29,533 bases of DNA from an uncultured Candidatus Saccharibacteria bacterium (GTDB lineage Bacteria; Patescibacteriota; Minisyncoccia; Phycocordibacterales; UBA1006), in NCBI GenBank assembly GCA_964425795.1, contig CAYRNU010000001.1, positions 1 through 29,533 on the forward strand, given 5' to 3'. The notes beneath the pieces were generated by a model, which worked only from the letters and a program-made list of their open reading frames with translations, was not told the origin of the DNA and did not search any database. Shown piece after piece: positions 16,543 to 29,307 of this stretch (the first letter of the stretch is position 1; the number at the start of each line of letters is the position of its first letter). A program made the position numbers and the translations under genes.

Positions 16543-17106
16543 TTACGATAAGTCTGTATCGCCAGAGTATGATGAATCGAAAGATTCGTCATCAGCTAAG
16601 ATACCAACAAAAGAAAGACGGTCAACTAAGATACCACGTTTATTCAACGAAGCACTCTTACGTGTGAAACGGCAATCTTTGATTGTGATGAACTCAACAG
16701 AGTCTGTCACAGTAGCAGTTCCACCAGCAGCAGTTGCGCCAGTTTGTTCTTTTTGGAAAACAGATAAATCCCATGTTTGAGATAACAAAATGTTTCCTGG
16801 GTTGATTTCGTTAGCGCCGTTTCCACCAGTAGTGTAATCGACTTTACCTAAACCGTTACCACCTGTGTTCGTTCCAGGCATATTGTTTGTCTTAGCAATT
16901 CCAGTGTAACGAACAACTGATAATTCACCAGCTACTGAGTAGTTTACTGGTTCGTTAGTTACTGCTTCATATCGACCCATTGTTTCGATAGGAATAGTAT
17001 CTACGGCTACTTGATATGATACGTCAGCTGCATAAGCAAACGTCTTACCGCCTACTTTAATCTTAGCATTCGCACCTGTGATAAATGAGGGCTTTTTACC
17101 TGCCAT
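16543..17106 (-). CDS. Tail tube protein paralog 1 (probable start MAGKKPS at 17106)
   Basis: First gene after the sheath; FITGANAKIKVGGKTFAYAADVSY...NEPVNYSVAGELSVVRY; RBS AAGGA before ATG 17106. Confidence 0.82.
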   Translation of the reverse strand: MAGKKPSFITGANAKIKVGGKTFAYAADVSYQVAVDTIPIETMGRYEAVTNEPVNYSVAGELSVVRYTGIAKTNNMPGTNTGGNGLGKVDYTTGGNGANEINPGNILLSQTWDLSVFQKEQTGATAAGGTATVTDSVEFITIKDCRFTRKSASLNKRGILVDRLSFVGILADDESFDSSYSGDTDLS

Positions 17107-17153
17107 TTGAGTTCCTTTTGGTCTTGTGGTTGACCTTACCATCCATTTTTTTA

Positions 17154-17259: not shown

Positions 17260-19479
17260 TTAAGCTGTTTGAGTTGCGCGTTGCAGAGTGATATCTGCTA
17301 ACACGAAATCGATACCTTCAACTAATTTCACAACTACTGCGATATTAACAGTGTTACCGTTAATTTGAACAACTAATTGTTTGAAACCGTTTTTAGCATC
17401 AGAAGTAGAAACAGTAATACCTTGAGCTAAGTAAGTTGCAAGGATAGCCTCACAAGTACTCTTAATCTCAGCAGCAGAAACTGTGTTCTTCAATCCAACA
17501 TAGATATTCTCTAATTGGTTACGGAAGTCGTAAGCCAATACGTCTGAAGCGTACAACACGTTACCACGGTTGTTAACCCAGTTTCCATCCTTATTGTAAG
17601 TTGTATTATCAACTACAAGGCGGAATCCACCAGTTTGAGGAGCTTCCCAGAACGTTAAAGCGTTCGCGATAGCATCGTCGTACTGTGTATCTGGATCAAA
17701 ATCAACAACGATATCTTGCTCAGCAGTGCTCATTGGTTGAGCCGTTTGACGGATACCTGACATGTTGAAGTATTTGAATGTCATTGGGTTACCAATTGGT
17801 GAACCACCGCGTGCACCAGCAAGTAATGCTGCGCCAGCCCATGGTTGGAACCACTTGATGTTACCTTCAGAATCTGTTTGACGAATGTCTTGGATTACCA
17901 TTTGGATGCGAGCAGCAGCCATTGTAGCAATCTTAACTTTAGCGTCAGAATAAGATCCTTTGAAAGATAAGTAACCTTGTCTTTCAGATTTTTTCTTAGT
18001 AGTAGACATCAAGCTTAAGTGAGTTTTCACGGCTTGGTGGATACCATCGATAGTATATGTAGAAGCAGCATCAGTCAATTGGTCAGCAATATCATCAGCG
18101 GCATCGCGTGAGAATAAAGGAACAACAGAGTTAACACGGAACTTCTCGAACTTACTTAATGCAGTAACGATATCAGCAGAAGCAGTAGCTCCTTTTGAAC
18201 CGCCAGATAAGTAAATAGCATTTGGCACGCCTTGTTGATCTGGAAGACCAACTTTCTTAACGCTTGATTGGCTCACTAGAGGAATTAATTCAACTTGTGA
18301 AGACAATGCGAAGAAGTCAGCAACTTTTTTAGCATCTTGTTTGATGCGAGCAGGCATAGCACCTGAAGCAGCATGAAATGCACCAGTTGCAGCAACTTGG
18401 TCTAATACTGAAAGAGACAATTGTCCTAACAATACTGAACCAGCTTGTGCGATCCAACCTGGAAGTGTGTTTACGTAATCAACTAAAGCTTGAACATTTG
18501 GGAAGTCAGCTTTATTTAATACATAAGAAGTAGGTGTTGCGCCAGTTTGTGAAAGAGTAACTGAAGAAGCAGACACCGCTACAGTTGCAGCAGTTGCGCC
18601 ACCAGTTGAATCACGACCCATCATCAACACGATTTCGCCACCAACTGTTTGACTCTCTTCAAGAGTAGTAACAGGGTTACGAACAGTTAATGTAGCCATT
18701 GGTTCAGAAGCAGCAGCAGTCCAACCAGCAACGTGGCCGATTGATACAAGTGCTGTACCACCAGTGATTTCCATTGAACGACCAGAACCATTTTGATTCA
18801 AGTTAGATCCAGCAGCCATTGCAATTTCAATTGATGTTCCATCGGCTGATACTTCCCAGCTAGAACCCATTGCAGTTTGAATAGCAGCAGCTAAAGCAGC
18901 AGCGTTCGCGTACGAAGCAGCAGCGATAGTTGAAGTAACAGAAGCACCACCGTTTTGACGAGCGATGATTGTGTCGTTAGATGCAGAAGTAATTACTACT
19001 GGGTAAGTTGGAGCTGATCCAGTTACCGCAGCAGGAGTTTCTGCCGTTAATACGTTTTTAAAAGTAATTTGATTTCCTGACGTTCCCCATTGACGAGCAC
19101 GAAGACGACCGAAATCAGTTGCACCAGCTTCGATTGAAGCAAGTTCAGCACGAATAGATGCGTTTGTTTTGTAGATGTAAATCGCTTGCGCTCCACCTGG
19201 GATTGCACCGTCTGCTCCAGGAGCAAACAAGAAGTTACATGCGTCTACTAAATTACCGCGTCCATATTTGTCACGGATTTGAGCCATTTGATCTGGACCA
19301 AATACGTTATTAGCGATGTTTGTTTCTGCAGAGCCAGGAGCTCCTGCATCCGCTTCTCCAAATACTGCAACGATACCAGTTGGAGAAAGAGGAAATCCTC
19401 CGCCAAGGTCGATTGTAGTCTTAGAGTAAGCACCTGGTTTGAAAATGGTTGCACCATTAAAGCTTACATTAATTGCCAT
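17260..19479 (-). CDS. Contractile tail sheath protein
   Basis: 739 aa; N-terminal FNGATIFKPGAYS...GIVAVFGEADAGAPG; C-terminal sheath domain LYASDVLAYDFRNQLE...VVVKLVEGIDFVLADITL; RBS AGGAG. Confidence 0.92.
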   Translation of the reverse strand: MAINVSFNGATIFKPGAYSKTTIDLGGGFPLSPTGIVAVFGEADAGAPGSAETNIANNVFGPDQMAQIRDKYGRGNLVDACNFLFAPGADGAIPGGAQAIYIYKTNASIRAELASIEAGATDFGRLRARQWGTSGNQITFKNVLTAETPAAVTGSAPTYPVVITSASNDTIIARQNGGASVTSTIAAASYANAAALAAAIQTAMGSSWEVSADGTSIEIAMAAGSNLNQNGSGRSMEITGGTALVSIGHVAGWTAAASEPMATLTVRNPVTTLEESQTVGGEIVLMMGRDSTGGATAATVAVSASSVTLSQTGATPTSYVLNKADFPNVQALVDYVNTLPGWIAQAGSVLLGQLSLSVLDQVAATGAFHAASGAMPARIKQDAKKVADFFALSSQVELIPLVSQSSVKKVGLPDQQGVPNAIYLSGGSKGATASADIVTALSKFEKFRVNSVVPLFSRDAADDIADQLTDAASTYTIDGIHQAVKTHLSLMSTTKKKSERQGYLSFKGSYSDAKVKIATMAAARIQMVIQDIRQTDSEGNIKWFQPWAGAALLAGARGGSPIGNPMTFKYFNMSGIRQTAQPMSTAEQDIVVDFDPDTQYDDAIANALTFWEAPQTGGFRLVVDNTTYNKDGNWVNNRGNVLYASDVLAYDFRNQLENIYVGLKNTVSAAEIKSTCEAILATYLAQGITVSTSDAKNGFKQLVVQINGNTVNIAVVVKLVEGIDFVLADITLQRATQTA

Positions 19480-19872: not shown

Positions 19873-20616
19873 TTAAATGTTCATATCTTCATCGCCGTCG
19901 TCATCTCCGACTCGGCTAACTTTAATCCCGTCGTTAGCTGTGATATCGACATCTTGGATATCGACATCTAGAGAGGTAGCTATGTCACTAGCCGGCTCCA
20001 ATCCAACTGCAGGATCAACGTTAATGCTGTCGACTTGGTGAAACGATTCTGAGCTCCAAAAGTTCTGAGTCGTACAACGAAATCTAACCCAACGAGTCCA
20101 GATATTCTCTGTCATCTTAGCATTATCTTTATTATAGTCTGAGGCTGAAAAGGTATGTAATTTCAATCCTAATCTGTGGGCCATCAGTTTATGTTTAAAT
20201 AGAATATAAGCCACCATGTAGTACATCCATAGTACGTGGTCGCCGGCTTTATTAGCGTGGACCCCAATGTCAACCATAGCGGTAAATACACCAGTTCCAG
20301 TTTCACCGTTCTCGTCAAATACTCCAGCATAGTCACCAATAGAGGCTTTAGACTCATCTTCGGTTTCATTAGCTAAGTGAACTGAGATACAAGGAATAAC
20401 TTGAGCATTGAAGCTCCAAGCCTTAACTACAGGTATCTTAGTTGTAGAGAACCATTTCCAGACTTCGTCTAGATATTTCTGACCATAGTCATCATTTAGT
20501 TCATCTTGTTTGAACTGACAAAATAAATCATAGAACTCAGCCTTATTAGAACGCAGTTGTTTAATTCCGTGCTCCAATACTTTCTGTACTACGATCTCAG
20601 GCATTACAAATGACAT
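19873..20616 (-). CDS. Putative tail completion / terminator-like neck protein
   Basis: 247 aa just upstream of the sheath; IPCISVHLANETEDE and TRWVRFRCTTQ pattern; assignment mostly by synteny. Confidence 0.55.
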   Translation of the reverse strand: MSFVMPEIVVQKVLEHGIKQLRSNKAEFYDLFCQFKQDELNDDYGQKYLDEVWKWFSTTKIPVVKAWSFNAQVIPCISVHLANETEDESKASIGDYAGVFDENGETGTGVFTAMVDIGVHANKAGDHVLWMYYMVAYILFKHKLMAHRLGLKLHTFSASDYNKDNAKMTENIWTRWVRFRCTTQNFWSSESFHQVDSINVDPAVGLEPASDIATSLDVDIQDVDITANDGIKVSRVGDDDGDEDMNI

Positions 20617-21026
20617 TAGAAACCACCTTTACTTAGATTATCATTCCACCACAAAGGTTGAAGATTTGTGTAATGGCAGGCTTTCTTTAATTCTTCTGGG
20701 TTAGTTAAATCAAACGCCGATAACGGAACGATATGATCGATATGCCAACCTTTAACGCCTCTATTACTCCAATTCATATCAGGAGTGAATTTAGATTCTA
20801 AGTAGCTTTTGAATTCTTCTATAGAGCAACCTAGGTCACGCACAGCAGATCCATTTTTACAATTAATACTAATAGCCTTGTTTAGGCGATTTCTAAGAAG
20901 ATTACGAAGCTTTTCAGATTCAGTCATAGGATTAAGTCGACGCCACTCTCTTTGCTTGGCATTTACATAGTCACGATTGACTTCTTTCCATTTTTTAGAG
21001 CTTATCTTATTTTTAAGTCTGCTCAT
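20616..21026 (-). CDS. Free-standing HNH homing endonuclease
   Basis: LGCSIEEFKSYLESKF...NWSN.G..GWHIDHIVPLSAFDL...CHYTNLQPLW..DNLSKG is a characteristic HNH family motif; TAATG overlaps with both neighbours. Confidence 0.85.
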   Translation of the reverse strand: MSRLKNKISSKKWKEVNRDYVNAKQREWRRLNPMTESEKLRNLLRNRLNKAISINCKNGSAVRDLGCSIEEFKSYLESKFTPDMNWSNRGVKGWHIDHIVPLSAFDLTNPEELKKACHYTNLQPLWWNDNLSKGGF

Positions 21027-21670
21027 TAAAATCCCTCTTCATAGCTACGAATGATCCTATAGATGACATCATCGTGGGACTCCGCTAAGAGGTTATTAAT
21101 CTCTTTTAAGTCTTCAGTGAAGTCTTTTTCTTTAGCAGGCTGAACCCATTGTGTAGCGCGGTTCTGCTTACTAGTAGCCGTTCTGAATTCAACCTTTGAA
21201 CCCTTTGGCTTTACCTTATTATACTGAGCTAACGCTGTAGCATACCTTTCGGCTGCAATAGCTTTCTGAGCATCAAATATATTGTTCTGGATAGGTGGAC
21301 GCTTTTGACCACCATCCCCACCAACTGGAATAATCTTATAAACCCCTGAACCATCGTTCATTGGCTTAGCTCCCTTAGCTAAAAGTCTATCTAGCATAGG
21401 CATTGGTGGCTCACTGAAATCAGTGATACCAGAGTCCGTATCTAATACGAATGCGTCTGGTCTAGGACGTAAGGAGTTAATGAAGTCAGAAGAGTCTTTT
21501 TGAACACCCGACTGAACTGCCATTTCCATACCTGAGTCCATGATCTCTCTTAAGGCAAGAGAAATCTCAGTCTCGGCTTTAGAGGCGATTTCTTCTACGA
21601 ATTCTTCCTCTATGCCTTTGGCGCGCAATACGTCTTTAAGTCTATTAAGTTCTAAGAATATATTAAGCAT
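21026..21670 (-). CDS. Hypothetical neck/head-tail region protein
   Basis: 214-aa ORF coupled to its neighbours within the head-tail joining block; no family recognised with certainty. Confidence 0.6.
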   Translation of the reverse strand: MLNIFLELNRLKDVLRAKGIEEEFVEEIASKAETEISLALREIMDSGMEMAVQSGVQKDSSDFINSLRPRPDAFVLDTDSGITDFSEPPMPMLDRLLAKGAKPMNDGSGVYKIIPVGGDGGQKRPPIQNNIFDAQKAIAAERYATALAQYNKVKPKGSKVEFRTATSKQNRATQWVQPAKEKDFTEDLKEINNLLAESHDDVIYRIIRSYEEGF

Positions 21671-23192
21671 CTGTCTTCTCGCGCTTTACAACTTTAGCAC
21701 GCATGTCGTGCAAGAAGTTTTGTTTCTCAAGATCAGTCCAGTCTGAACCGAAAGAGATCTTGATTGTTCCGTTAGGAGAGATCTCAACTTGAGGGCGCGG
21801 AAGATAAGGGTAGTGCTCATCATGAATGCGGGCATGGTTAGGTTTGCCAGCAGTAACAGCAGTTACCGTCTCAGGCTTCTTTCCCATGATATCGATCTTA
21901 TTTGCAAGGTCTCTTAATTTAGCCTCAAGTTCATCAATCTCTTTTCCTGCCATATCGGCAAGTTCATTGTGCTTACTAGAAACAGTGTGAATCGTATCTT
22001 CAAGCTTATCAAACAGCTTCATAATACGAGCTTCGACTTGTTGTAAGTCGATAGCAGCACCGTTGCGAATTTGCTCACGAATTGTTTCCATCTCTTGATA
22101 GATGTTTCCAATATTGTGGCGCTTATAATTCTCGATAAGAGTTTGCACTCCACCGTGTAATACATCATCTTCGATTGCGTCATCATGAATATCATTCATG
22201 AAGTCTTCATCTTCAGGCAAATACCATTCGAAAACAGACATCAGAGCTGCAGTAGTCTCAGGAAGTGATTTATTAGTCCATTGATAGATCATCTTGTGAC
22301 CATCTTCAACGCGACCAGAATAAACATCATTCATGTGTTTACGAATAGAAATCTTGTAAGTATCTAAATGAATATCTTTAAAGTCTTCGTCTTTCATGTC
22401 CTTAACTTCTTCACGAAGTTTACGGAACATTCCATTACCAACTAAACGAAGTGCATCACCATGAGTAACTTCAAGAACTGCATCGCTTTTTTGACGAATA
22501 ACGTTCTTCTCAAGTTTCTCTAATGCGATCATACCAGTAAGTGATTTGCCAAGTTTTTGGCGAACGAATTGCTCTAAAGGTTTATGGCAACAATCACGTA
22601 GATCGTCCCAAGGAATGTCATCGACATCAAACCATTTAGGATCTTTTAATTCATCAGTAGATTTAGGTTCACCAGTGAAGCTTTCAATAAGAAACACATC
22701 GCAGTGATTACCATTTAACTTACCAGACCAAATCTTTTGTGGATTACGTCCAGTAATTCCCATCTCTTCTTTTAACTCACGAAGAGCACAGATAGATTTG
22801 TCACCATCAGCCATATCCATGTGACCACCAGCGAATGCCATGCCGCCAGTGCTGTGACGACCTAACAAGATTCTGTTGTTGTCATCCATTACTAATGCTG
22901 CAGCTGCGTGACCTTCATAGTGATCTTCAAAAGACTTCTTAAGTTCCTTTTTAGACTTCTTACGCTTGTGACGTTCTTCTTTAACTTTTTCTTTAGCTTT
23001 TGCGTGGTGATGTTCAGACCATGAACCTCCACGATTTTCACCGTGTTGTTCAGGGGCATCTTTTCCAGGGGCTGAGTACTTCGCTGCAACCGATTTAGGA
23101 GGCGTGCCACGTCCACCTTTGGATGCGTCTGCTTTGCCATGTAAAATGGCTTGCATTAAGCGATATTGTTTTCTAGATACAGCTTGTGGCAT
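21663..23192 (-). CDS. Nudix hydrolase domain-containing protein with basic N-terminus and C-terminal coiled coil (probable virion/internal protein)
   Basis: Nudix box variant AGGHMDMADGDKSICALRELKEEMGI, preceded by AAAALVMDDNNRILLGRH; heptad region FDKLEDTI...LEAKLRDLANKID. Confidence 0.8.
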   Translation of the reverse strand: MPQAVSRKQYRLMQAILHGKADASKGGRGTPPKSVAAKYSAPGKDAPEQHGENRGGSWSEHHHAKAKEKVKEERHKRKKSKKELKKSFEDHYEGHAAAALVMDDNNRILLGRHSTGGMAFAGGHMDMADGDKSICALRELKEEMGITGRNPQKIWSGKLNGNHCDVFLIESFTGEPKSTDELKDPKWFDVDDIPWDDLRDCCHKPLEQFVRQKLGKSLTGMIALEKLEKNVIRQKSDAVLEVTHGDALRLVGNGMFRKLREEVKDMKDEDFKDIHLDTYKISIRKHMNDVYSGRVEDGHKMIYQWTNKSLPETTAALMSVFEWYLPEDEDFMNDIHDDAIEDDVLHGGVQTLIENYKRHNIGNIYQEMETIREQIRNGAAIDLQQVEARIMKLFDKLEDTIHTVSSKHNELADMAGKEIDELEAKLRDLANKIDIMGKKPETVTAVTAGKPNHARIHDEHYPYLPRPQVEISPNGTIKISFGSDWTDLEKQNFLHDMRAKVVKREKTDA

Positions 23193-23250: not shown

Positions 23251-24075
23251 TTAAGTGACAACAGGATCAACGATCTTCTCGCCAGACCCCACCATGAAAT
23301 CACGGCGCACTAGTATTTGTTGAGGTAACCTACGGGCTGTTTTTACTCCACCCACTAATTCCTGTGTTATTCTAAGTTCTCTAAGTGACTGTAAAACTAC
23401 ATATACTGGGTTAGCAAAGTAAGCCCAGCCTATAACTTCACCACGCTCAAGAGCTGCATCATAAGATGGTTCTTTTCCAGGGATCCATTCAATACCGCCA
23501 TCAGCTGTAACATTAAAGTCTACGCCAGGCATATAGAACTTTTGAACCCCATCAGTTATTGATGAGGCATACTCTACTTTCTGAACTGGATATCTCAGGT
23601 CTTGAATTCCACCTGGACGAGGTTCATAACCTTTTAGTTCCCATAAGCGAACAGTAAAGTCAGGCATTTCAAGTTTATCATAAGTGTTGAAGTCAGCTTG
23701 AGTGCCATCTGGATATTCAGTAGGAAATGTAACAACTGCTGTTCCTGTTTCCCAAACACCGTGAGCTTCGAAAGTTTTCTCAATTGAGTTACCTTGGAAA
23801 ATACCATAGCACTCTTTGCTCTCGTAATAGATCAAACCAGAATCATCACAAAATGGACAATCAGGTTGATGAGCTTGAAATGTAGTGCTTTCTACGTTCA
23901 TGCAAGGAATTGCTTTGTGATGGATGAAGCGAATACCACGTTGATTTAATAGCTGATCAAAGCTAATACCTTTAATCGAAGGATCTGGTAAGTACATCGG
24001 CATTGGCGACGGACTTGTCGTTGGCGACGTTGGTGGTGGGTTCGGAAACTGTTTATTTGGCTTATCCATACTCAT
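23251..24075 (-). CDS. Head-closure (stopper)-type virion protein, Herelleviridae-like
   Basis: LLNQRGIRFIHHKAIPC...PDCPFCDDSGLIY resembles the RGI..LW..A..CPC...DCP.C.G.G motif of Twort-like head-completion proteins. Start moved to MSMDK (24075), 9 nt after GGTATAAT. Confidence 0.65.
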   Translation of the reverse strand: MSMDKPNKQFPNPPPTSPTTSPSPMPMYLPDPSIKGISFDQLLNQRGIRFIHHKAIPCMNVESTTFQAHQPDCPFCDDSGLIYYESKECYGIFQGNSIEKTFEAHGVWETGTAVVTFPTEYPDGTQADFNTYDKLEMPDFTVRLWELKGYEPRPGGIQDLRYPVQKVEYASSITDGVQKFYMPGVDFNVTADGGIEWIPGKEPSYDAALERGEVIGWAYFANPVYVVLQSLRELRITQELVGGVKTARRLPQQILVRRDFMVGSGEKIVDPVVT

Positions 24076-24084
24076 AATGACTTT

Positions 24085-24138
24085 ATTATACCTGATTAGC
24101 GATTGAAATGGGTCTAGGCTCAATTATCCTGTTATAAT
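24085..24138. promoter_or_regulatory. Divergent promoter pair (GGTATAAT minus, 24085-24092; TGTTATAAT plus, 24130-24138)
   Basis: Back-to-back -10 elements at the strand switch. Confidence 0.55.
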
Positions 24139-24172: not shown

Positions 24173-24430
24173 ATGGGTATTTTGAATAAAATCATCGAAG
24201 AAGACGGATCCTGCACTCTTTGGGCTAGCCCATCTATTTGTGCTCAATGTCCATTAAGTAAATTAAAACAGAAACCTGATGGTACGTATCTGAGTTGTGT
24301 TGAAGCACTAGGTGTTGACAATATGACAGAGGAAGAGGCTGATGCTCGATATAAAGAGGTCGCAAGTCGCATACTGTTAGATGAGGCTATCGACGATATC
24401 CTTGGAGAGTCAGATGGCTCTCAGCAATAA
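24173..24430 (+). CDS. Small Cys-rich protein (paralog A)
   Basis: ILNKIIEEDGSC...ICAQCPL...SC; related to the next ORF. Confidence 0.7.
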   Translation: MGILNKIIEEDGSCTLWASPSICAQCPLSKLKQKPDGTYLSCVEALGVDNMTEEEADARYKEVASRILLDEAIDDILGESDGSQQ

Positions 24431-24656
24431 TGATGCTAATATTCTAGAACAAATAGTTCAATTAGAGGGAAAGTGCATGGATTCCCAGAGGTGTAAATTA
24501 TGTCCGTTCCGTGTAATGTGTCTACCAGAATTCATAAATCCAAATCCGCCAAGTCCAGAACAGCGAATGAAGATGTCGCTCGACGTACTTGCTCATCATG
24601 CTCTTGTGGACGATCTCCCCTTGGAAGCGACCGAATACAAATGGGACAAAAAGTAA
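24414..24656 (+). CDS. Small Cys-rich protein (paralog B)
   Basis: SD GGAG then ATG 24414; ILEQIVQLEGKCMDSQRCKLCPFRVMC. Confidence 0.7.
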   Translation: MALSNNDANILEQIVQLEGKCMDSQRCKLCPFRVMCLPEFINPNPPSPEQRMKMSLDVLAHHALVDDLPLEATEYKWDKK

Positions 24657-24757
24657 GCGACGTCTTATTCTTAAAAGAAAAGCAAGATCGCGCCAAGTAT
24701 AATCTTCTTATGGTATTAGTAAAACTAAAACTAAGAAGCTTTTATGACGAACGATAA
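24641..24757 (+). CDS. Micro-protein, helix-motif family (KYNLLMVLVKLKL)
   Basis: 38 aa from ATG 24641; fills the gap between 24656 and 24744 with overlaps. Confidence 0.5.
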   Translation: MGQKVSDVLFLKEKQDRAKYNLLMVLVKLKLRSFYDER

Positions 24758-24959
24758 AGATGAAATCCAAAGAATCTTGGCTAAACTAGCTGAGGTACCA
24801 GTAGAAGAATTAGGTCTTATTGAGGGTCGCTATTGCGGACCATCTAATAGATTTTTATGCGAAAATAGATTTCACTGTTCTCCAAAACAACTTAAAAAAG
24901 TTTTAGATCAGTACATTACTAATAGAGCATTTGAAGAAATCATTCTAAATACCAAGTAA
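24744..24959 (+). CDS. Small Cys-containing protein (possible paralog C)
   Basis: IQRILAKLAE...C...LC...HC...AFEEII echoes paralogs A and B. Confidence 0.6.
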   Translation: MTNDKDEIQRILAKLAEVPVEELGLIEGRYCGPSNRFLCENRFHCSPKQLKKVLDQYITNRAFEEIILNTK

Positions 24960-24961
24960 TC

Positions 24962-24970
24962 TGTTATAAT
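24962..24970 (+). promoter_or_regulatory. Extended -10 TGTTATAAT
   Basis: Immediately after stop 24959; a GGAGG SD follows at about 24998-25002. Confidence 0.5.
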
Positions 24971-25007
24971 AGAGATACCAACCTTGATCCTAACATAGGA
25001 GGCGAAC

Positions 25008-25259
25008 ATGACTAAACTCAGTCAACTTACACAGTTCGCTTCTCTGTGCTCAAATAATATTCACAAAGGAAGTACTTATGGAAAAGCGTCAACCACGCCA
25101 GGTCCAAATTCAATTCAATTCAGCACAAGAGGCTATCAATCTCTATATGCAAATCGAATTAAAGCACTTTCTGGCCAGATTACTATATTCCCACTATACT
25201 GGCAGAGTATAATAGTAGGTAATGAGCCACAAGACTTGGGAACCACACGAAATCACTAA
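25008..25259 (+). CDS. Hypothetical ORF (uncertain; overlaps two motif-family ORFs)
   Basis: Strong GGAGG RBS, but it fully overlaps 25078-25212 in another frame. Confidence 0.3.
   Translation: MTKLSQLTQFASLCSNNIHKGSTYGKASTTPGPNSIQFSTRGYQSLYANRIKALSGQITIFPLYWQSIIVGNEPQDLGTTRNH
25078..25212 (+). CDS. Micro-protein, helix-motif family (ELKHFLARLLYSHY)
   Basis: MEKRQPRQVQIQFNSAQEAINLYMQIELKHFLARLLYSHYTGRV, 44 aa; RBS AAGGAAG. Confidence 0.6.
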   Translation: MEKRQPRQVQIQFNSAQEAINLYMQIELKHFLARLLYSHYTGRV

Positions 25260-25401
25260 GACAGATAGTAAGATGAAATTCTTCTATTTCCTGCGTGATT
25301 TAGGTATCAAGTCAGCTCAAGAGCCTGCTCAAATTACTTGGAAACGTCACATAGAAATATTAACTCATCTCTATAACGGAGCTTGGCATGAGGTTTCATA
25401 G
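25222..25401 (+). CDS. Micro-protein, helix-motif family (KFFYFLRDLGIKSA)
   Basis: 59 aa from ATG 25222 (or 42 aa from 25273); TATAAT at 25208-25213. Confidence 0.7.
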   Translation: MSHKTWEPHEITKTDSKMKFFYFLRDLGIKSAQEPAQITWKRHIEILTHLYNGAWHEVS

Positions 25402-25636
25402 ACTCACTGCCGACCAAATTAGTTCTGTACATAGACTCTATAATTTTCTAAGAAAGATGAAAGTTATTGGGATAGTTAATACAGTGACTGAGCAAGTAAG
25501 GTATACAGAGAGTGGTAAGCCGCTGCGCTACAATCTTAAATTTGTTTCTTATGATGGTTCAATGAAGGGTAAGCTTACTCCTGAGGAAAAGCTATCTGTT
25601 TATTTTAAATCACTTAGTCTTGTATTCGACGGTTAA
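25388..25636 (+). CDS. Micro-protein, helix-motif family (RLYNFLRKMKVIG)
   Basis: 82 aa, overlaps the previous ORF; possible weak hub-like segment after the motif. Confidence 0.7.
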   Translation: MRFHRLTADQISSVHRLYNFLRKMKVIGIVNTVTEQVRYTESGKPLRYNLKFVSYDGSMKGKLTPEEKLSVYFKSLSLVFDG

Positions 25637-25777
25637 GCGACAGCCTTCCATCCAACGCGCACCAAGATGTACGCGATCAAATCCAATACCTAATTTCATC
25701 AGTAGATAAAATAGAGGATACTTAGCGAACGGCTCACCGTTCTCGTCATCGAAGTCATATTGCCAAGTGATGCCCAT
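25610..25777 (-). CDS. Micro-protein, helix-motif family (PLFYLLMKLGIG)
   Basis: MGITWQYDFDDENGEPFAKYPLFYLLMKLGIGFDRVHLGARWMEGCRLTVEYKTK, 55 aa; TAATG-coupled to the upstream ORF. Confidence 0.65.
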   Translation of the reverse strand: MGITWQYDFDDENGEPFAKYPLFYLLMKLGIGFDRVHLGARWMEGCRLTVEYKTK

Positions 25778-25950
25778 TAGGCAGACTCCGTTATCCAGTG
25801 CGGTTTAACGTAAATTTCTTTTCCTGTCTTAGGAAGAGTGTACTTAATAGAACCCATGATACCTTCTGTTGCGCTAGCTTTAATAAGCTTCATCAACATC
25901 ATTTGCATTTTAGATCTTGGATCCATTTTTCTAGTGTAATATCTACTCAT
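25777..25950 (-). CDS. Micro-protein, helix-motif family (KMQMMLMKLIK)
   Basis: MSRYYTRKMDPRSKMQMMLMKLIKASATEG..., 57 aa; ATGA-coupled to the upstream ORF. Confidence 0.6.
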   Translation of the reverse strand: MSRYYTRKMDPRSKMQMMLMKLIKASATEGIMGSIKYTLPKTGKEIYVKPHWITESA

Positions 25951-26135
25951 ATTCTACTATCCGCCACCATTACGTGTATTCGTCCGTCATTGCCGAACCA
26001 GTAGATTGTACCGTCTTTATAAAATCCACCTTCGATACCATTGCTGATCGTCTTATATTTCAATAGCTTCATGGCAAGAAACATTACGTTGCGAACAGGG
26101 AATCTAGGATAGATAGTCCAGTCTGGTCGATTCAC
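25947..26135 (-). CDS. Micro-protein, helix-motif family (RNVMFLAMKLLK)
   Basis: 62 aa; ATGA overlaps on both sides. Confidence 0.6.
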   Translation of the reverse strand: MNRPDWTIYPRFPVRNVMFLAMKLLKYKTISNGIEGGFYKDGTIYWFGNDGRIHVMVADSRI

Positions 26136-26365
26136 GGATAATTAGTAAGCGTTCTGAAGACGCTCTCCCACGGGAATTTAACAAATCGCTTATCTAGTCT
26201 ACATAAAACATATAAGAGTTTTTGGCGATGCAAGTCGCCTTCGATCATGTGAAGGTATGCTTTAAAAACAGAACCTTTTTCTAAGTCTTGGATAGGCGTA
26301 GATGAAACCATCCCCGCTATCATCGCGTCAAGAATTTCTTTGTACGTCTTTGGTGAAGAGCTCAC
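26132..26365 (-). CDS. Micro-protein: baseplate-J N-terminal mimic + helix motif
   Basis: GTG start 26365 after GGAAGG. KTYKEILDAMIAGMVSSTPIQDLEKGSV matches KSFNQILGDMIRKIIAETPLNDLNAGSV at 12/28, ungapped; then QKLLYVLCRLD. Confidence 0.75.
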   Translation of the reverse strand: MSSSPKTYKEILDAMIAGMVSSTPIQDLEKGSVFKAYLHMIEGDLHRQKLLYVLCRLDKRFVKFPWESVFRTLTNYP

Positions 26366-26409
26366 GAATATACCTTCCAACTGTAACGAACGCGACGTAC
26401 CAAGCTAAA

Positions 26410-26643
26410 CTAAGTATTAGACCCATCAGAGCCATCGCTATCAACAGTCTCGATAGGGATTGCTGTAATACCAGCATCAAAGCTTGCGTCTTTTGCATAA
26501 GCGACGTCTTGTCCATTTATCTTTAACCTCAAAAGTCTTCCTCTTAAGATGGAAGGCTTGTTATTTATTATAGCGCTTTTAATCCCCAATTTCTTGAGGA
26601 AGAATAAGAACTTTCTGTATTCCCAAGTGTCCCATTGAATCAT
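26410..26643 (-). CDS. Micro-protein: helix motif + tail-tube N-terminal mimic
   Basis: RKFLFFLKKLGIKSA, then KPSILRGRLLRLKINGQDVAYAKDASFDAGITAIPIET, 16/38 identical and ungapped to tube paralog 1. Confidence 0.8.
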   Translation of the reverse strand: MIQWDTWEYRKFLFFLKKLGIKSAIINNKPSILRGRLLRLKINGQDVAYAKDASFDAGITAIPIETVDSDGSDGSNT

Positions 26644-26822
26644 AATTTTGGTCCTGGCATTCTTCGCTTAAGTGTATATCCTCGTGGAAAACCTGCAGAT
26701 TTAATATCTAACTTTCTCAATAAAAACTTTAAATCCCTAATAGATTGTTGTTCTACAGTGAGTCCACCATAGTTACCTGGTACTCGCAGCGTAACCCCAC
26801 CAAATATTCTAGTTATAGCCAT
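26640..26822 (-). CDS. Micro-protein: tail-sheath N-terminal mimic + helix motif
   Basis: SD GGAG then ATG 26822. MAITRIFGGVTLRVPGNY vs sheath MAINVSFNGATIFKPGAY, 9/18 identical; then RDLKFLLRKLDIKSA. Confidence 0.78.
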   Translation of the reverse strand: MAITRIFGGVTLRVPGNYGGLTVEQQSIRDLKFLLRKLDIKSAGFPRGYTLKRRMPGPKL

Positions 26823-26892
26823 ACGTTCTCCGTCCCGCATTGAGAATTCGGCGGGGGCCCCTCAGATGCAATATACTGAGTTAGAGCATAGT

Positions 26893-27129
26893 TCATTTCT
26901 TCAACTTACTTGGATCAAATGTTGCTTTGCTTAGTGTCTTCTCTAAAGATTCAAATGCAGCGGCACCCATGAAAACTTGATCTGGTTTTCCGCCACTGTA
27001 CATTCCAACTTCAAGTGCTTCCATCAAATCAAGAATCATATCCTCACTAGAGAATTCTGCACTCTTAATTCCGAGCTTCTTCACGAAGTGTTTAAGTTTT
27101 CTGTATTGCTTTTTACTCTCAATGTTCAT
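26893..27129 (-). CDS. Micro-protein: helix motif + possible major-capsid-like segment
   Basis: RKLKHFVKKLGIKSA, then ...MYSGGKPDQVFMGAAAFESLEKTL; TATAAT 6 nt before the ATG. Confidence 0.7.
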   Translation of the reverse strand: MNIESKKQYRKLKHFVKKLGIKSAEFSSEDMILDLMEALEVGMYSGGKPDQVFMGAAAFESLEKTLSKATFDPSKLKK

Positions 27130-27141
27130 GAGAATATTATA

Positions 27142-27438
27142 CTAATTGCCGACGCCAGGGTTACGAGCTGTATACTGAGATTCCATGCGGCGAGCTGGCT
27201 TAACAACCTGCTTGATGTCTACGCGACCACCCTTTGGTACATCTCCGCCACCGAAGTCTTTCAGTGAACCTTTCTGTCCGGTATCCTTTGGCAAGTCACC
27301 GTTAAGATTGTGTTGAGTGCGAGCTGCGAAAGTAGCACTACCTGGTTTATAGTCAGACTTCGGTTGTTTCAAACCGTCACCAGTAGCTTTATGAAGCTCC
27401 CATTGTCCGCACTTATTAAACGTTAGATATTCGCTCAT
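27142..27438 (-). CDS. Small basic Gly-rich hypothetical protein (N-terminal LTFNKCGQWELHKA)
   Basis: 98 aa; TATAAT at 27445-27450, 6 nt before the ATG; lacks the family helix motif. Confidence 0.7.
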   Translation of the reverse strand: MSEYLTFNKCGQWELHKATGDGLKQPKSDYKPGSATFAARTQHNLNGDLPKDTGQKGSLKDFGGGDVPKGGRVDIKQVVKPARRMESQYTARNPGVGN

Positions 27439-27566
27439 GTAATGATTATATCATAGTCTGCATGGTACGCGGTCAAGAACGTCAAGTAGGCGTAAGGTCC
27501 AATCACTTTTAATTGAAGTAATAATAAAGCAAGGCTCTTCCTTATCTCGCGTTCCTCTTGTGTCAT
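27435..27566 (-). CDS. Micro-protein, helix-motif family (KSLALLLLQLKVIG)
   Basis: MTQEEREIRKSLALLLLQLKVIGPYAYLTFLTAYHADYDIIIT, 43 aa; ATGA overlap with 27438. Confidence 0.55.
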   Translation of the reverse strand: MTQEEREIRKSLALLLLQLKVIGPYAYLTFLTAYHADYDIIIT

Positions 27567-27577
27567 ACGTTCATTCG

Positions 27578-27688
27578 CTACACGAACTCACGTGCCTCAT
27601 CTTGGTGAACATACAAAGCTTGTTTGATTCCGAGCTTCTCTAAGAAGCTCGTTAATCTGAACGTGTTTGCCATACCCCACGGCTTCAT
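27578..27688 (-). CDS. Micro-protein, helix-motif family (RLTSFLEKLGIKQA)
   Basis: MKPWGMANTFRLTSFLEKLGIKQALYVHQDEAREFV, 36 aa; SD GGAG. Confidence 0.7.
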   Translation of the reverse strand: MKPWGMANTFRLTSFLEKLGIKQALYVHQDEAREFV

Positions 27689-27698
27689 CGTGTCTCCG

Positions 27699-27917
27699 TC
27701 ATGTTAATTCCAATTGCCAAGTTCGCCCGCTCGGCGAACTCGTCATGCTCCGGTACTCCGTTAGACGATTGTAATAAATTACATCGAGTTTCGTCAACAC
27801 TCCGATTAAGCTCTTGATGGATGCAGCCTCTTCCGGCTTATACCACCTTGACGTGTACCTCGATGCTACTACGTCCAGTCTTATATTAGATGTGGTGACT
27901 CTATGTGTGAGACTCAT
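27699..27917 (-). CDS. Micro-protein, helix-motif family (KSLIGVLTKLDVI), possible LysM-like fragment
   Basis: 72 aa; ATGA-coupled; N-terminal HRVTTSNIRLDVVASRY. Confidence 0.6.
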   Translation of the reverse strand: MSLTHRVTTSNIRLDVVASRYTSRWYKPEEAASIKSLIGVLTKLDVIYYNRLTEYRSMTSSPSGRTWQLELT

Positions 27918-28027
27918 GCAGACCTCTGTTTGACGCCGGTGGGCACGCCCAGCTTTTCCAGGAAATAGAACAACTTGTAGGTTTTATGTTTGCCCTCCAT
28001 GAGGGTCCAGAGTAGTTGACCGTTCAT
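27914..28027 (-). CDS. Micro-protein, helix-motif family (KLFYFLEKLGV)
   Basis: MNGQLLWTLMEGKHKTYKLFYFLEKLGVPTGVKQRSA, 37 aa; ATGA overlaps on both sides. Confidence 0.7.
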   Translation of the reverse strand: MNGQLLWTLMEGKHKTYKLFYFLEKLGVPTGVKQRSA

Positions 28028-28182
28028 GGTGTTGGTCTCTTTGGGGAGGAGATGTTGATGTAGAGCATGGCAGTAGACCTTTTGATTAATCCCATTTTGT
28101 ATAGCTGAAGGATGAGACGGCCTGTTGGGTTTATCTCGATTATGTATTGAGAGCCTGGGACTGAGTGGTAGCCTGGTTTCAT
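28024..28182 (-). CDS. Micro-protein, helix-motif family (RLILQLYKMGLIK)
   Basis: 52 aa from ATG 28182 after GAGGA; ATGA overlaps on both sides. Confidence 0.6.
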   Translation of the reverse strand: MKPGYHSVPGSQYIIEINPTGRLILQLYKMGLIKRSTAMLYINISSPKRPTP

Positions 28183-28334
28183 TTGTCCTCTAGTGGTAGG
28201 GTGTTCCACCCAAGTGTAGGGGTTCCAGTGTAGGAAATGAGTTGGATTACCTTAAGTTTATTTAGGAAATTATGTAGCTTGAATAGGGGAAGGTTGTCTT
28301 TTTTATATTCGAAGTGTCCGTGAGAGATTTCCAT
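28179..28334 (-). CDS. Micro-protein, helix-motif family (KLHNFLNKLKVI)
   Basis: MEISHGHFEYKKDNLPLFKLHNFLNKLKVIQLISY..., 51 aa; GGTATAAT 7 nt before the ATG. Confidence 0.65.
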   Translation of the reverse strand: MEISHGHFEYKKDNLPLFKLHNFLNKLKVIQLISYTGTPTLGWNTLPLEDK

Positions 28335-28388
28335 ATTTTATATTATACCAATAGGGGTACCGGGTTAAGGTTTGCCTATTAGGTTTAG

Positions 28389-28620
28389 AGGGTGGCGGGG
28401 CCTTTATTTAGGTTGGTAATTTGGATATAGGAGTCGGCAAAAGAATGCGATGAGAAATGTATGTTGAATGGTTAAGTGTGGGCGTGAGTCGCGATATGTG
28501 TGGCGGATGGTGGACCATTTTTTAATGCAGGTATCTTCGATTGATTGGTCCAGTGGAATATATATAAATGGTCTGAAAGGAGGAGTGCGCATGAAGAGTA
28601 TTGTACCAAGGGTGGCGGGG
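28389..28620. repeat. 12-bp GC-rich direct repeat AGGGTGGCGGGG (28389-28400, 28609-28620)
   Basis: Exact copies 220 nt apart in an otherwise AT-rich region. Confidence 0.7.
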
Positions 28621-28625
28621 GCCAC
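28404..28625 (-). CDS. Micro-protein, probable helix-motif family (FLIAFFCRLLYPNY); start uncertain
   Basis: C-terminus matches ORF 25078 (HFLARLLYSHY); alternative ATG at 28592. Confidence 0.4.
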   Translation of the reverse strand: MAPATLGTILFMRTPPFRPFIYIPLDQSIEDTCIKKWSTIRHTYRDSRPHLTIQHTFLIAFFCRLLYPNYQPK

Positions 28626-28719
28626 TTTATAGAAAAAGCTTATGTACAGAAAGAGTTGGCCGCGTGAGGCTCCCTGAAACTAGGGGTTCCCTTTTATGCT
28701 AAGGCTAGCGGGCGCCTAT

Positions 28720-28842: not shown

Positions 28843-29307
28843 ATGTCACAAGTTACACAAAAAGAAGCGGTATTCCAAGCGGTTTGCAATGTTACAGGTT
28901 TTAACGGCGAAGGCGTGTGTGAGATTACGTCTGAGCAACGCAAGCAAGTGAACGCGATCTTGTTTGAGGGTTTCAAGTCGGGCAAGATCCAAATCGAGAC
29001 GATGCCTGACGACGCTGCGCTTAAGGGATACGTGAGTGGATTGCAGTCGAATTGGTTACGCAAGGACACTCGCTTGAACGGTGGTATGAAGTATACAGCT
29101 AAGAACCCTGGTTCTCGCGCTGGTTCGTCTGACCCATCTCTGAAAGCGATGCGCGCTTTGTTGAGCACAGTTAAGACTGACGAAGAGCGTGCTGAGATCC
29201 AAGGCTTCATCGACCAACGCGTGTCTGAGTTATCGATCACTAAACAAGCTAAGACTGTTGACTTCTCTGCTCTACCTGCTGAGCTTGCTGCGAAGTTCAG
29301 CAAGTAA
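28843..29307 (+). CDS. Hypothetical protein (154 aa), first gene of the plus-strand (probably early) unit
   Basis: Strong SD GGGAGGT; biased codon usage typical of highly expressed genes; no family recognised. Confidence 0.85.
   Translation: MSQVTQKEAVFQAVCNVTGFNGEGVCEITSEQRKQVNAILFEGFKSGKIQIETMPDDAALKGYVSGLQSNWLRKDTRLNGGMKYTAKNPGSRAGSSDPSLKAMRALLSTVKTDEERAEIQGFIDQRVSELSITKQAKTVDFSALPAELAAKFSK

Follow-up and report, generated by a model that had tools for sequence, protein, structure and literature searches.

The analyzed window, 29,533 nt in full, is a phage contig whose source is an uncultured wastewater myovirus of roughly 150-175 kb; the nearest cultured relative is Myxococcus phage Mx1 (sheath identity 33%). 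The sequencing runs labelled RNA resemble DNA. Sixteen small genes are closely packed within 25222-28334, and the question raised by this locus is whether, and why, their products share one short peptide. An earlier note had proposed that about 18 micro-proteins on both strands carry one amphipathic helix tag in otherwise unrelated sequence; the motif array proved to be real, but the count, some of the members and the "unrelated cargo" required correction. The array is a hypervariable cassette array; it carries a multigene family, restricted to the lineage, whose micro-proteins are 36-82 aa long. The Cys-rich genes at one border show 40-80% identity across 12 related loci, compared with 30-57% for the array genes, and the gene at the other border shows 48-71% identity in related loci. 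The features are as follows, with leave-one-out (LOO) PSSM scores for the motif.

24173..24656, plus strand: two Cys-rich conserved small genes, one border of the variable array
24641..24757, plus strand: candidate 38-aa member, uncertain (YNLLMVLVKLKL; 8.8 bits), overlapping the end of the conserved gene 24381-24656
25222..25401, plus strand: 59-aa gene, family A1; motif 25273-25317 (MKFFYFLRDLGIKSA); LOO 22.7 bits
25388..25636, plus strand: 82-aa gene, family A2; motif 25430-25474 (HRLYNFLRKMKVIGI); LOO 14.5 bits
25610..25777, minus strand: 55-aa gene; motif 25676-25720 (YPLFYLLMKLGIGFD); LOO 16.9 bits
25777..25950, minus strand: 57-aa gene; degenerate hydrophobic helix at the site given in the earlier note; 2.1 bits
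25947..26135, minus strand: 62-aa gene; weak motif variant 26049-26093 (..MFLAMKLLKY); LOO -6.9 bits
26132..26380, minus strand: 82-aa chimera; baseplate-wedge (J-like) N-terminus, then motif variant 26180-26224 (QKLLYVLCRLDKRFV)
26410..26643, minus strand: 77-aa chimera; motif 26572-26616 (RKFLFFLKKLGIKSA), then copy of the putative tail tube N-terminal hairpin
26640..26840, minus strand: 66-aa gene; sheath-like N-terminus, then motif 26694-26738 (RDLKFLLRKLDIKSA)
26893..27129, minus strand: 78-aa chimera; motif 27058-27102 (RKLKHFVKKLGIKSA), then copy of about residues 12-69 of the major capsid protein
27142..27438, minus strand: 98-aa Gly/Lys/Pro-rich gene within the array, without the motif
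27435..27566, minus strand: 43-aa gene; weak motif 27495-27539 (KSLALLLLQLKVIGP); LOO 3.1 bits
27578..27688, minus strand: 36-aa minimal member; motif 27617-27661 (FRLTSFLEKLGIKQA); LOO 22.9 bits
27699..27917, minus strand: 72-aa gene; motif 27771-27815 (KSLIGVLTKLDVIYY); LOO 6.7 bits
27914..28027, minus strand: 37-aa gene; motif 27935-27979 (YKLFYFLEKLGVPTG); LOO 20.2 bits
28024..28209, minus strand: 61-aa gene; weak motif 28078-28122 (GRLILQLYKMGLIKR); LOO 3.0 bits
28179..28334, minus strand: 51-aa gene, first of the minus-strand array; motif 28239-28283 (FKLHNFLNKLKVIQL); LOO 16.4 bits
28843..29307, plus strand: conserved 154-aa gene, the other border of the array

Applied to the 16 consecutive small genes, a blind de novo Gibbs sampler recovered the motif of the earlier note, [RK]xLxx(F/L)LxKLG(I/V)(KSA), in 14 of them, with an LLR of 272.6 bits compared with 222.7 +/- 3.8 bits in 40 composition-preserving shuffles (z=13). 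LOO scores were 14.5-30.3 bits for nine genes and -6.9 to 6.7 bits for five weak ones. In a six-frame scan with the full PSSM, matches of at least 10 bits were absent from all non-coding frames of the array region, the rest of the window (25 kb) held a single one, at 10.1 bits, and the MAG's other contigs (558 kb) held 17, from 10 to a maximum of 15.4 bits; the equal frequency in shuffles or other frames that had been named as counting against the motif was therefore not what was found. Membership falls from 18 to about 14-15 proteins, five of them weak, and two of the proposed members are not genes: ELKHFLARLLY (25078-25212; -4.1 bits) is an alternative frame within the conserved gene 25008-25259, and FLIAFFCRLLY (28404-28625; -6.5 bits) lies in a GC-rich intergenic stretch without an orthologue. 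KMQMMLMKLIK (25777-25950) does belong to a real gene, but with merely a degenerate helix; the Gibbs sampler did not pick this site, and five orthologues retain an L-A-M-x-x-x-[KR]-L-L helix there. In its fullest form the motif reads [RK]-x-L-x-x-F-L-x-K-L-G-I-K-S-A, and the common core is a 10-12-residue amphipathic cationic helix, L-x-x-F/L-L-x-K-L, ended by a Gly cap and a hydrophobic residue. Within the proteins, the start of the motif ranges from residue 10 to residue 53, in agreement with the variable position described before.

Conservation of the motif is at the protein level only, as the earlier note had argued in setting it apart from a DNA repeat, and third codon positions are random. 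Identity among the 14 motif-coding segments is 0.41, 0.55 and 0.27 at codon positions 1, 2 and 3, the same codon is used in 30.5% of the pairs of identical motif residues (41% expected from codon usage), and the serines of the four IKSA copies are encoded by TCA, AGC, TCT and AGT. The proposed start/stop coupling was likewise borne out by the gene coordinates, with six 4-base overlaps and one 1-base overlap on the minus strand. Furthermore, syntenic orthologues occur in about 15 related viral contigs, syntenic motif genes are also present in two near-complete relatives, NCBI assemblies contain public gene calls for array genes, and dN/dS for array genes is 0.08-0.2, with dS saturated. These comparisons show that the array ORFs are real, constrained coding genes; the majority fall into orthologous families, in which the motif is, judging from the alignments, the part under the most stringent purifying selection.

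Family A1 has nine syntenic orthologues and 74 homologues, in which the motif is the best-conserved stretch (D in 74/74, L 72, I 72, G 71, A 69, R 68, S 65), its dN/dS between loci L005 and L007 is 0.08, and its product is probably a hairpin of helix, GIKSA..P turn and helix. Family A2 has eight orthologues (dN/dS 0.19). On the minus strand, orthologues of 25610..25777 in L005 and L006 retain the motif, those of 25947..26135 keep an LKLLGY variant despite the -6.9-bit score, and the 98-aa gene is kept in five loci with identity up to 77%; no orthologue of 27435..27566 was found among the fetched related loci. The minimal members (36-44 aa) amount to hardly more than the module plus one additional helix. 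The 36-aa member has a 41-aa relative (P0083), and a wastewater strain contig carries 194 other bases in place of the entire gene; a strain-level breakpoint at 27980 coincides with the N-terminal edge of the motif in 27914..28027. A TATAAT box lies 7 nt upstream of the ATG of 28179..28334, and cassette borders carry short promoter-like and GC-rich elements, with strains swapping whole-gene cassettes. The TATAAT boxes and a GC-rich element recurrent in the region, together with the five weak members, could be read as signs that the motif is a translated DNA repeat (promoter or recombination site) or a chance match in Leu/Lys-rich small ORFs; given the shuffles, the other frames, the third codon positions and the retention of the motif in orthologues and the 74 homologues, such an origin is unsupported and extremely improbable. 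The motif is a real, lineage-restricted protein module.

The flanks of several members resemble virion proteins. As their homology indicates, sequence from the N-termini of the phage's own capsid, tube and baseplate-wedge proteins is present in three motif genes, where it is joined at the motif; a fourth gene, 26640..26840, is sheath-like on weaker matches. In the capsid, tail-tube and baseplate cases the copied stretch is the opening 25-60 residues of the protein, and related phages carry the same chimeras. Residues 11-43 of 26132..26380 match residues 6-38 of the 2055-aa ORF 1-6165, which itself matches PHROG 6, baseplate wedge (39%, E 1e-4; E 0.001 in a larger database), and the L006 orthologue, aligned from residue 1, is 49% identical across 39 aa (E 5e-7). 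Residues 29-67 of 26410..26643 match residues 17-55 of the putative tail tube 16543-17142 (41%, E 3e-8); this match recurs against tube proteins of six related phages, and both parts of the chimera are kept in five close orthologues. For 26893..27129 the match is to the 483-aa capsid protein in G001 and G002, two related records (E 2e-5 to 8e-5), and with MAFFT its family aligns throughout with the capsid N-terminus; G002 has a one-ORF version consisting of an N-terminal segment, the motif and capsid 52-74. The product of 26640..26840 is probably 60 aa from Met7 at 26822, and residues 7-30 share 10/24 identities with sheath residues 1-24, in register from Met1 (E 0.017 within the window, 0.19 in the larger database); in G001 a single 89-aa ORF joins a sheath-like N-terminus, the motif and the tube hairpin. 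The earlier note had overlooked that part of the "cargo" was copied from the N-termini of the phage's own virion proteins. Its statement that the rest of each protein is unrelated holds in part: the flanks differ in origin, but most of the genes fall into orthologous families, and three, with a fourth on weak matches, contain virion pieces.

By these comparisons the flanks to which the IKSA module is joined differ in origin, and the modular reading put forward earlier stands: a peptide of 13-15 residues, conserved at the protein level and better than the rest of its families, lies beside capsid-, tube-, baseplate- and probably sheath-like flanks. A 30-residue alignment (A5) shows an invariant L..(F/L)L.KLGIKSA with unrelated sequence on either side. 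The module had no match in Pfam, PHROGs of known function, folds or literature, and HMMER over 1.84 billion proteins (E<1e-3) found it in only 10 micro-proteins of array type, the other two hits being a helical-repeat protein and a tandem-repeat artefact. Because a similar turn, LLVKLGIKA, recurs in this unrelated helical-repeat protein, the motif sequence is also a generically good helix cap. AF2 predicts the motif to be helical in both models, A2 and the tube chimera, and by these models the IKSA peptide is a Gly-capped helix.

It is possible, if doubtful, that the micro-proteins instead arose by tandem duplication and divergence of a single mini alpha/beta or alpha-hairpin fold, with the motif as core helix and cap, and that, with no common partner or tag function, they do separate jobs like phage ORFan arrays for host takeover or counter-defence. 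The A2 model (pLDDT 85.7), the sole confident one, places the motif in helix a1 (8-23) of a compact b1-a1-b2-b3-a2 fold, for which a fold search gave no significant match; the conserved hydrophobics may therefore be mere core, and in some members the motif may be a core helix only. Consistent with this, the universal positions are hydrophobic (L3, F/L6, L7, L10 and I/V12) plus the Gly cap, several members can be read by eye as strand-helix-strand, and the helical-repeat protein shares the helix-cap sequence; moreover, the residues after K-L vary by family (GIKSA, KVIG, DKRF, GIGF) but are kept across phages within each, which favors family-specific structure over one universal docking site. 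However, different IKSA members have flanks homologous to different virion proteins; these members are thus not simple paralogues, and overall paralogy cannot explain the shared peptide. The near-invariant polar residues of the A1 motif across the 74 homologues include R, D, K and S, unneeded by a buried core helix, which disfavors a mere core there; in addition, position (residue 10-53) and secondary-structure context vary between members, and the tube chimera has no predicted fold beyond the motif helix (pLDDT 52.5).

Our tentative best explanation is that the micro-proteins are built round a shared protein-contact module; docking, its target and the role of the virion pieces are all what we infer from these patterns. 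Recombination would have joined the peptide to flanks of diverse origin, including capsid, tail tube, baseplate-wedge and probably sheath N-termini. The module would act as a common protein-contact element, either a docking helix or half of an alpha-hairpin pairing with a partner or with other family members, and would bring or hold the variable part at one common partner; in the chimeras, that part would be an inter-subunit arm of a virion protein.

The motif helix has a mean hydrophobic moment of 0.46, a mean hydrophobicity of 0.57 and a net charge of +2.4, and such moderate amphipathicity and positive charge are, on sequence properties, compatible with docking, membrane targeting and a degron alike, the roles named in the earlier note, and favor none of the three. 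Parking of the variable parts at the inner membrane, e.g. for superinfection exclusion, by a MinD/FtsA-like amphipathic helix would fit these means and an apparent resemblance of the motif to the MinD C-terminus, F-L-K-R-L-F-G. This is nevertheless improbable, as the conserved hydrophobic residues form only a narrow stripe (i, i+3, i+4, i+7), the moment is no higher than in shuffles for several members, the helix is internal rather than terminal, and the A2 model packs it on a sheet. Recognition as a degron or chaperone-binding element by a host protease adaptor or DnaK, suggested by the basic-hydrophobic-basic sequence pattern, is very unlikely; degrons known so far are mostly terminal, and the conservation of G-I-K-S-A exceeds the specificity of DnaK preferences.

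Capsid targeting of the T4 CTS kind was also weighed. By binding scaffold or core, the helix would bring the micro-proteins into proheads; the prohead protease would then cleave GIK-SA at K|S, and the small peptides released would be ejected with the DNA. In T4 internal proteins the only common element is a 10-residue CTS that terminates at a protease site, the remainder being diverse and poorly conserved (PMC9026906). The G001 scaffold has 7 K-S dipeptides compared with 3.0 expected, six of which have L or M at the third position ahead of the S, and the capsid region copied in the capsid-like chimeras contains T-L-K-S. Targeting and processing together are unlikely, however, since the motif is internal (start at residues 10-53) rather than N-terminal, K-S is missing from half of the members, the Leu in L-G-I-K|S is one residue farther from the cut than in the scaffold sites, and a head offers no obvious place for sheath, tube and baseplate pieces.

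Four known systems lie closest to a shared contact module with variable flanks. SaPI1 CpmB mimics the scaffold C-terminus, and prophage tail-assembly blockers likewise redirect or block assembly; in these, as here, a short protein copies an inter-subunit contact element of a structural protein. Those proteins are encoded by a satellite or prophage and act against another phage, whereas here the phage itself encodes the copies, which have only about 40% identity to its own proteins, form a collinear set (capsid, sheath, tube, wedge) and have one peptide in common. RiPP precursor arrays (e.g. prochlorosins) also comprise many micro-ORFs with one conserved recognition or leader peptide and a hypervariable remainder; in contrast, the peptide here is not always N-terminal, the variable parts include virion copies rather than Cys/Ser/Thr-rich cores, and no RiPP-type modifying enzyme was detected among the window's proteins. 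T4 internal proteins (IPI-III and relatives) are similarly small, basic and fast-evolving, lie in a variable locus and have only a short amphipathic peptide in common, the CTS being a portable address for foreign cargo (PMC9026906). The CTS, however, occupies residues 1-10, with an L/I-x-E gp21 site at its end (PMC9026906), whereas the present peptide is internal and of different sequence; the source phage is not T4-like. Finally, the hyperplastic regions of T4-type phages, with PeSL shuffling, share the block of small ORFans between conserved core genes, whole-gene cassette replacement and promoter-like or GC-rich border elements (PMC2839356, PMC4122927). PeSLs are conserved DNA elements (PMC2839356, PMC4122927), whereas in this array a peptide is repeated without DNA conservation and virion-gene fragments are fused to it in frame.

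An array of 16 tightly packed small genes, flanked by the conserved blocks 24173-24656 and 28843-29307, is laid out as follows.

25222-25636, plus strand: two array genes
28334 down to 25610, minus strand: 14 array genes

Minus-strand neighbours share start/stop overlaps of 4 bases at six junctions and of 1 base at one. Across 12 related loci, the flanking genes retained 40-80% identity and the array genes 30-57% or no detectable orthologue, and this comparison points to the array as the fast-evolving part of the locus. Motif genes were present at the syntenic place in related contigs (2-6 each), and orthologues that could be aligned had saturated dS, a dN of 0.19-0.37 and a dN/dS of 0.08-0.2, with one pair, from the related viral loci L014 and L015, near neutral in dN/dS. 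Altogether, these patterns argue that the array genes are real and that the motif is their selected core.

When the 16 array proteins alone were given to a Gibbs sampler, it converged in 14 of them on the motif that the earlier note had picked out by eye, here called the IKSA peptide ([RK]xLxx(F/L)LxKLG(I/V)(KSA), a short predicted helix with a Gly cap), at an LLR of 272.6 bits vs 222.7 +/- 3.8 bits for shuffled proteins (z=13). A leave-one-out PSSM set nine strong members (14.5-30.3 bits) apart from five weak ones, and orthologues of the weak window members keep a helix variant of their own in each family (LKLLGY, KLDKRF and LAM..C+LL). A six-frame scan returned no matches of at least 10 bits in the other frames of the region and one marginal match in the remaining 25 kb, and the PSSM maximum in the other contigs of the MAG (558 kb) was 15.4 bits; the motif is thus real, and was not equally frequent in shuffles or other frames. 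Identity among the motif-coding segments was 0.41, 0.55 and 0.27 at codon positions 1, 2 and 3, members with the same residue used the same codon in 30.5% of cases, below the 41% predicted by codon usage, and no two of the four IKSA serines have the same codon; conservation therefore lies in the peptide and not in the DNA, as had been proposed. Chance and a DNA repeat are excluded as sources of the motif by the z-score, the lack of any other-frame excess and the absence of DNA conservation. The proposed total of 18 tagged micro-proteins held only in part: 14 of the 16 array genes carry the motif, but 25078-25212 is an alternative frame and 28404-28625 an intergenic ORF, neither of them a gene, 25777-25950 is a real gene whose helix is only degenerate, and the membership of 24641-24757 is uncertain.

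The family of the 59-aa gene 25222-25401 (+), A1, had 74 metagenome homologues, all unnamed and none with a Pfam domain, and its motif, F-L-R-D-L-G-I-K-S-A, is by far the most conserved stretch, polar residues included. Among 1.84 billion representative proteins, a profile of the 30-residue IKSA module matched, at E<1e-3, ten micro-proteins of the same kind, one helical-repeat protein (LLVKLGIKA turns) and one tandem-repeat artefact; judged from this search, the module is narrowly distributed. The micro-proteins had no match in Pfam, PHROGs matches that all had E>0.01 and fell in families without a known function, no significant fold match by Foldseek against PDB and BFVD, VIA-align or ESM Atlas, and no usable match in an ESM Atlas feature search. 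Known short folds were likewise rejected: SAP, HeH and Rho_N domains gave no Pfam match even at E<=10 and no fold support, and the sequence after KSA, where these domains would have a conserved second helix behind the G-[LI] turn, is unlike between families; a helix-turn-helix had neither a Pfam or PHROG match nor fold support, and the model of A2 (the family of the 82-aa gene 25388-25636, +) is b-a-b-b-a, not three-helix; and the likeness to LAGLIDADG had no support from Pfam or fold.

Further small genes were noted around the array and in relatives. Motif micro-genes occur outside the main array in two near-complete related phage genomes, G001 (104483-104801 and 76133-76315) and G002 (37309-37485 and 44740-45000), with one family conserved between the two. 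The neighbouring small proteins 24173-24430, 24381-24656 and 24744-24959 each have C-x(5-9)-C-x2-C followed by a helix, and the first two are 40-80% conserved across relatives; the three are without a Pfam or PHROG match and look like paralogous zinc-binding micro-proteins. A short element is common to the 98-aa motif-less array protein 27142-27438 (..QYTARNPG.., at its end) and the 154-aa flank protein 28843-29307 (..KYTAKNPG..), and the gene of the latter is duplicated in several relatives.

The array belongs to a phage, whose genes fill the window, that is, the entire contig C1 of the MAG (587 kb, 81 contigs).

1-6165: baseplate-wedge fusion, 2055 aa
Within the window: baseplate proteins
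Within the window: probable tape measure, 959 aa
15324-17142: three paralogues of ~198 aa, putative tail tube, directly downstream of the sheath, with a weak match to PHROG 3776 (unknown function)
17260-19479: tail sheath (PHROG 279)
20616-21026: 136-aa protein among the structural genes, C-terminus ..HIDHIVP..N..LQPLWW.DN..K
21663-23192: Nudix-containing protein, 509 aa, in the head-tail block (NUDIX PF00293, E 3.5e-13)
23251-24123: virion protein

ORF 1-6165 (>2055 aa) is open at its C-terminal end, with no stop before the low-coordinate window edge, and its baseplate wedge family match (PHROG 6) is confined to residues ~184-340, the remainder being without explanation. The C-terminus of 20616-21026 resembles an HNH endonuclease motif, without a Pfam match at E<=0.01. 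The putative tube paralogues had no Pfam match and their PDB profile search was empty, and neither they nor the micro-proteins had an annotated homologue in 50,697 phage records (tblastn); the label of tube is therefore based on position and the weak PHROG 3776 match. The same records held no DNA-level similarity and no close relative (megablast). Among cultured phages, Myxococcus phage Mx1 is the nearest (sheath identity 33%) and, like the uncultured relatives, has a Nudix gene in the head-tail block; the annotated features of Mx1 in 30 kb around its sheath and capsid genes (annotation only, not a motif scan) include no comparable small-gene cluster. Related uncultured contigs of 115-175 kb were found in IMG/VR and NCBI metagenome assemblies. 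The phage itself is present in bioreactor and wastewater runs, and the wastewater 'RNA-Seq' runs that contain it were flagged as probably DNA, with coverage alike over structural and small genes. The contig has a GC of 0.409 and was binned in a MAG rated 91.5% complete whose other contigs are mostly at GC 0.41-0.48; its presence there is either a binning artefact or a sign that a large myovirus is associated with an organism of ultra-small genome.

Several array genes carry the motif joined to copied pieces of virion proteins of the same phage, a feature absent from the earlier note. In 26410-26643, a copy of the putative tube protein's N-terminal hairpin stands after the motif (41% over 39 aa, E 3e-8), and this piece matches the tube proteins of six relatives equally well. 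In 26893-27129, the motif precedes a copy of major capsid protein residues ~12-69 (E 2e-5); the major capsid gene is outside the window and was located in G001 and G002, where it comes immediately after an acidic scaffold-like gene. The order is reversed in 26132-26380, where a wedge-protein N-terminus precedes a motif variant (E 1e-4), and the orthologue in the related locus L006 matches the wedge from residue 1 (49%, E 5e-7). From an internal Met, 26640-26840 is in register with the sheath N-terminus at 10 of 24 identities; this match is weak alone (E 0.017 to 0.19), and the sheath-like start recurs in relatives. Relatives also hold other combinations: a single 89-aa ORF of G001 reads sheath-like N-terminus, motif and tube hairpin, a single 82-aa ORF of G002 reads N-terminal segment, motif and capsid 52-74, and in L006 an otherwise capsid-like 83-aa protein has the motif in place of capsid residues ~26-38. 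A closer relative, L041, has a collinear capsid-sheath-tube-wedge set as in the window.

Across phages, the tube-like pieces are as near to genuine tube paralogues as to one another, and the closest tube is tube-1 for the piece in the window and tube-3 for that of L006 (20/42); these small numbers hint at selection for, or renewal of, tube-likeness. The nine motif genes without a virion-like piece, together with 25777-25950 and 27142-27438, resembled the large ORFs of the window and two related genomes no better than shuffled queries did. The claim of unrelated cargo holds only in part, as some of the cargo is copied from virion proteins; a modular tag with swappable cargo is supported as a description, the same peptide standing beside flanks homologous to different proteins. 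Because the flanks have such different homologues, the IKSA peptide is not a remnant of overall paralogy. The virion proteins themselves are without the motif: over residues 1-40 of 18 structural proteins, the best core-PSSM scores did not exceed background (Mann-Whitney p=0.29), which rejects the motif as a general N-terminal signal of virion proteins, and a 97-aa protein upstream of the sheath with the C-terminus ..ALKKYGVKLA reached 3.6 bits only.

The IKSA peptide is accordingly a module combined with different partners and kept by selection more strictly than its surroundings. The predicted motif helix has a charge of +2.4 and a mean moment of 0.46 (moderately amphipathic), with a narrow hydrophobic stripe (i, i+3, i+4, i+7). 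In an AlphaFold2 model of the tube chimera (8 sequences, pLDDT 52.5), only the motif helix was formed and the remainder was of low confidence, and A1 and the 36-44-aa members look, from their sequence patterns, like hairpins of helix - GIKSA turn - helix. We tentatively rate a shared protein contact (docking or pairing) as the most likely role of the module, because its polar residues are near-invariant, its context is variable, minimal members exist and the chimera is predicted to be unfolded. The main rival, possible though doubtful, is a mini-fold of which the motif is simply the core helix with its cap. In favour of this rival, the A2 model (AlphaFold2, 8 sequences, pLDDT 85.7; without a significant neighbour in PDB, BFVD or ESM Atlas) places the motif helix (8-23) within a compact fold of strand, helix, two strands and helix, tails are family-specific, and a similar cap recurs in the helical-repeat protein. 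Membrane targeting or a degron role, both suggested earlier, are unlikely and without specific support. An unlikely extension of the contact reading is that the array constitutes a new phage system, in which a collinear series of tagged mimics, modelled on inter-subunit arms from the capsid, sheath, tube and baseplate of the phage itself, would all be docked by the shared helix to one partner, for timing or policing assembly, for interference with co-infecting relatives or as decoys for host defence sensors. A complex predicted for the sheath-like micro-protein (26640-26822) and the sheath itself (17260-19479) scored 0.00, with a partner pLDDT of about 30, which counts neither for nor against a contact.

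At the DNA level, TATAAT stands 6-9 nt upstream of the ATG of several genes, micro-genes and structural genes alike, often without a Shine-Dalgarno (28347, 27450, 27141, 25208, 24090, 8765 and others), which suggests leaderless or near-leaderless mRNAs and the same promoter type for both; Sigma-70 promoter and terminator scans gave no enrichment. The GC-rich element GGYGGCGGGGSCC has five window matches vs 0.16 expected, three of them in intergenic gaps of the array (26847-26859, 28391-28403 and 28611-28623), and at the last copy, three wastewater runs show a strain-level recombination breakpoint (28631). In related-strain wastewater contigs, the entire 36-aa gene 27578-27688 is swapped for 194 other bases (window 27568-27705), and 27980-28631 is replaced, one of the breakpoints coinciding exactly with a motif's N-terminal edge. 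The array turns over cassette by cassette.

Tiny phage ORFan genes are abundant and seldom explained; here, a whole array can be tied together by one strongly selected peptide of 13-15 residues, and in several of its genes that peptide is fused in frame to copied contact arms of structural proteins of the phage itself. Should the virion-like pieces act as mimics, they would represent an undescribed phage means of controlling assembly, fighting competitors or fooling defence sensors, and even on the modest reading, the array is a new micro-protein family whose residues are clear and testable.

An attractive analogue is the capsid targeting sequence (CTS) of T4-type internal proteins, a tag that forms the first ~10 residues, ends at a prohead-protease site and accompanies proteins found in the capsid (PMC9026906). 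A comparable targeting and processing signal, an unlikely reading here, would fit small, diverse proteins of a poorly conserved locus with only a tag in common, the K-S behind the helix (five of 14 window members; a sixth has K-Q) and the enrichment of K-S in the scaffold of a relative; however, the motif starts at residues 10-53, a variable position as had been claimed, and not at the extreme N-terminus. If the peptide is a portable address like the CTS, phages would have a second natural case of tag-plus-cargo design, and one ready for use as a tool. The membrane targeting sequence of MinD/FtsA is a terminal helix, whereas the motif helix, likewise cationic and moderately amphipathic, is internal. 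RiPP precursor arrays have an N-terminal leader and a neighbouring modifying enzyme; here, the motif is not always N-terminal, and no RiPP-type modifying enzyme was found among the window's proteins. PeSL-type cassettes each carry a conserved DNA promoter/stem-loop repeat, whereas the motif is without DNA conservation; TATAAT before several ATGs and the GC-rich element, present three times in array gaps with one of these copies at a strain breakpoint, may be counterparts of such repeats. Tag-plus-cargo internal proteins (PMC9026906) and variable small-gene arrays (PMC2839356, PMC4122927) are already known kinds. Searches of Pfam, PHROGs, fold libraries and the literature found no description of the IKSA peptide, its narrow lineage or the virion-protein fusions, and what appears new relative to the known kinds is this peptide, its narrow lineage and, above all, its in-frame fusion to copied N-termini of capsid, tube, wedge and, probably, sheath proteins of the phage itself.
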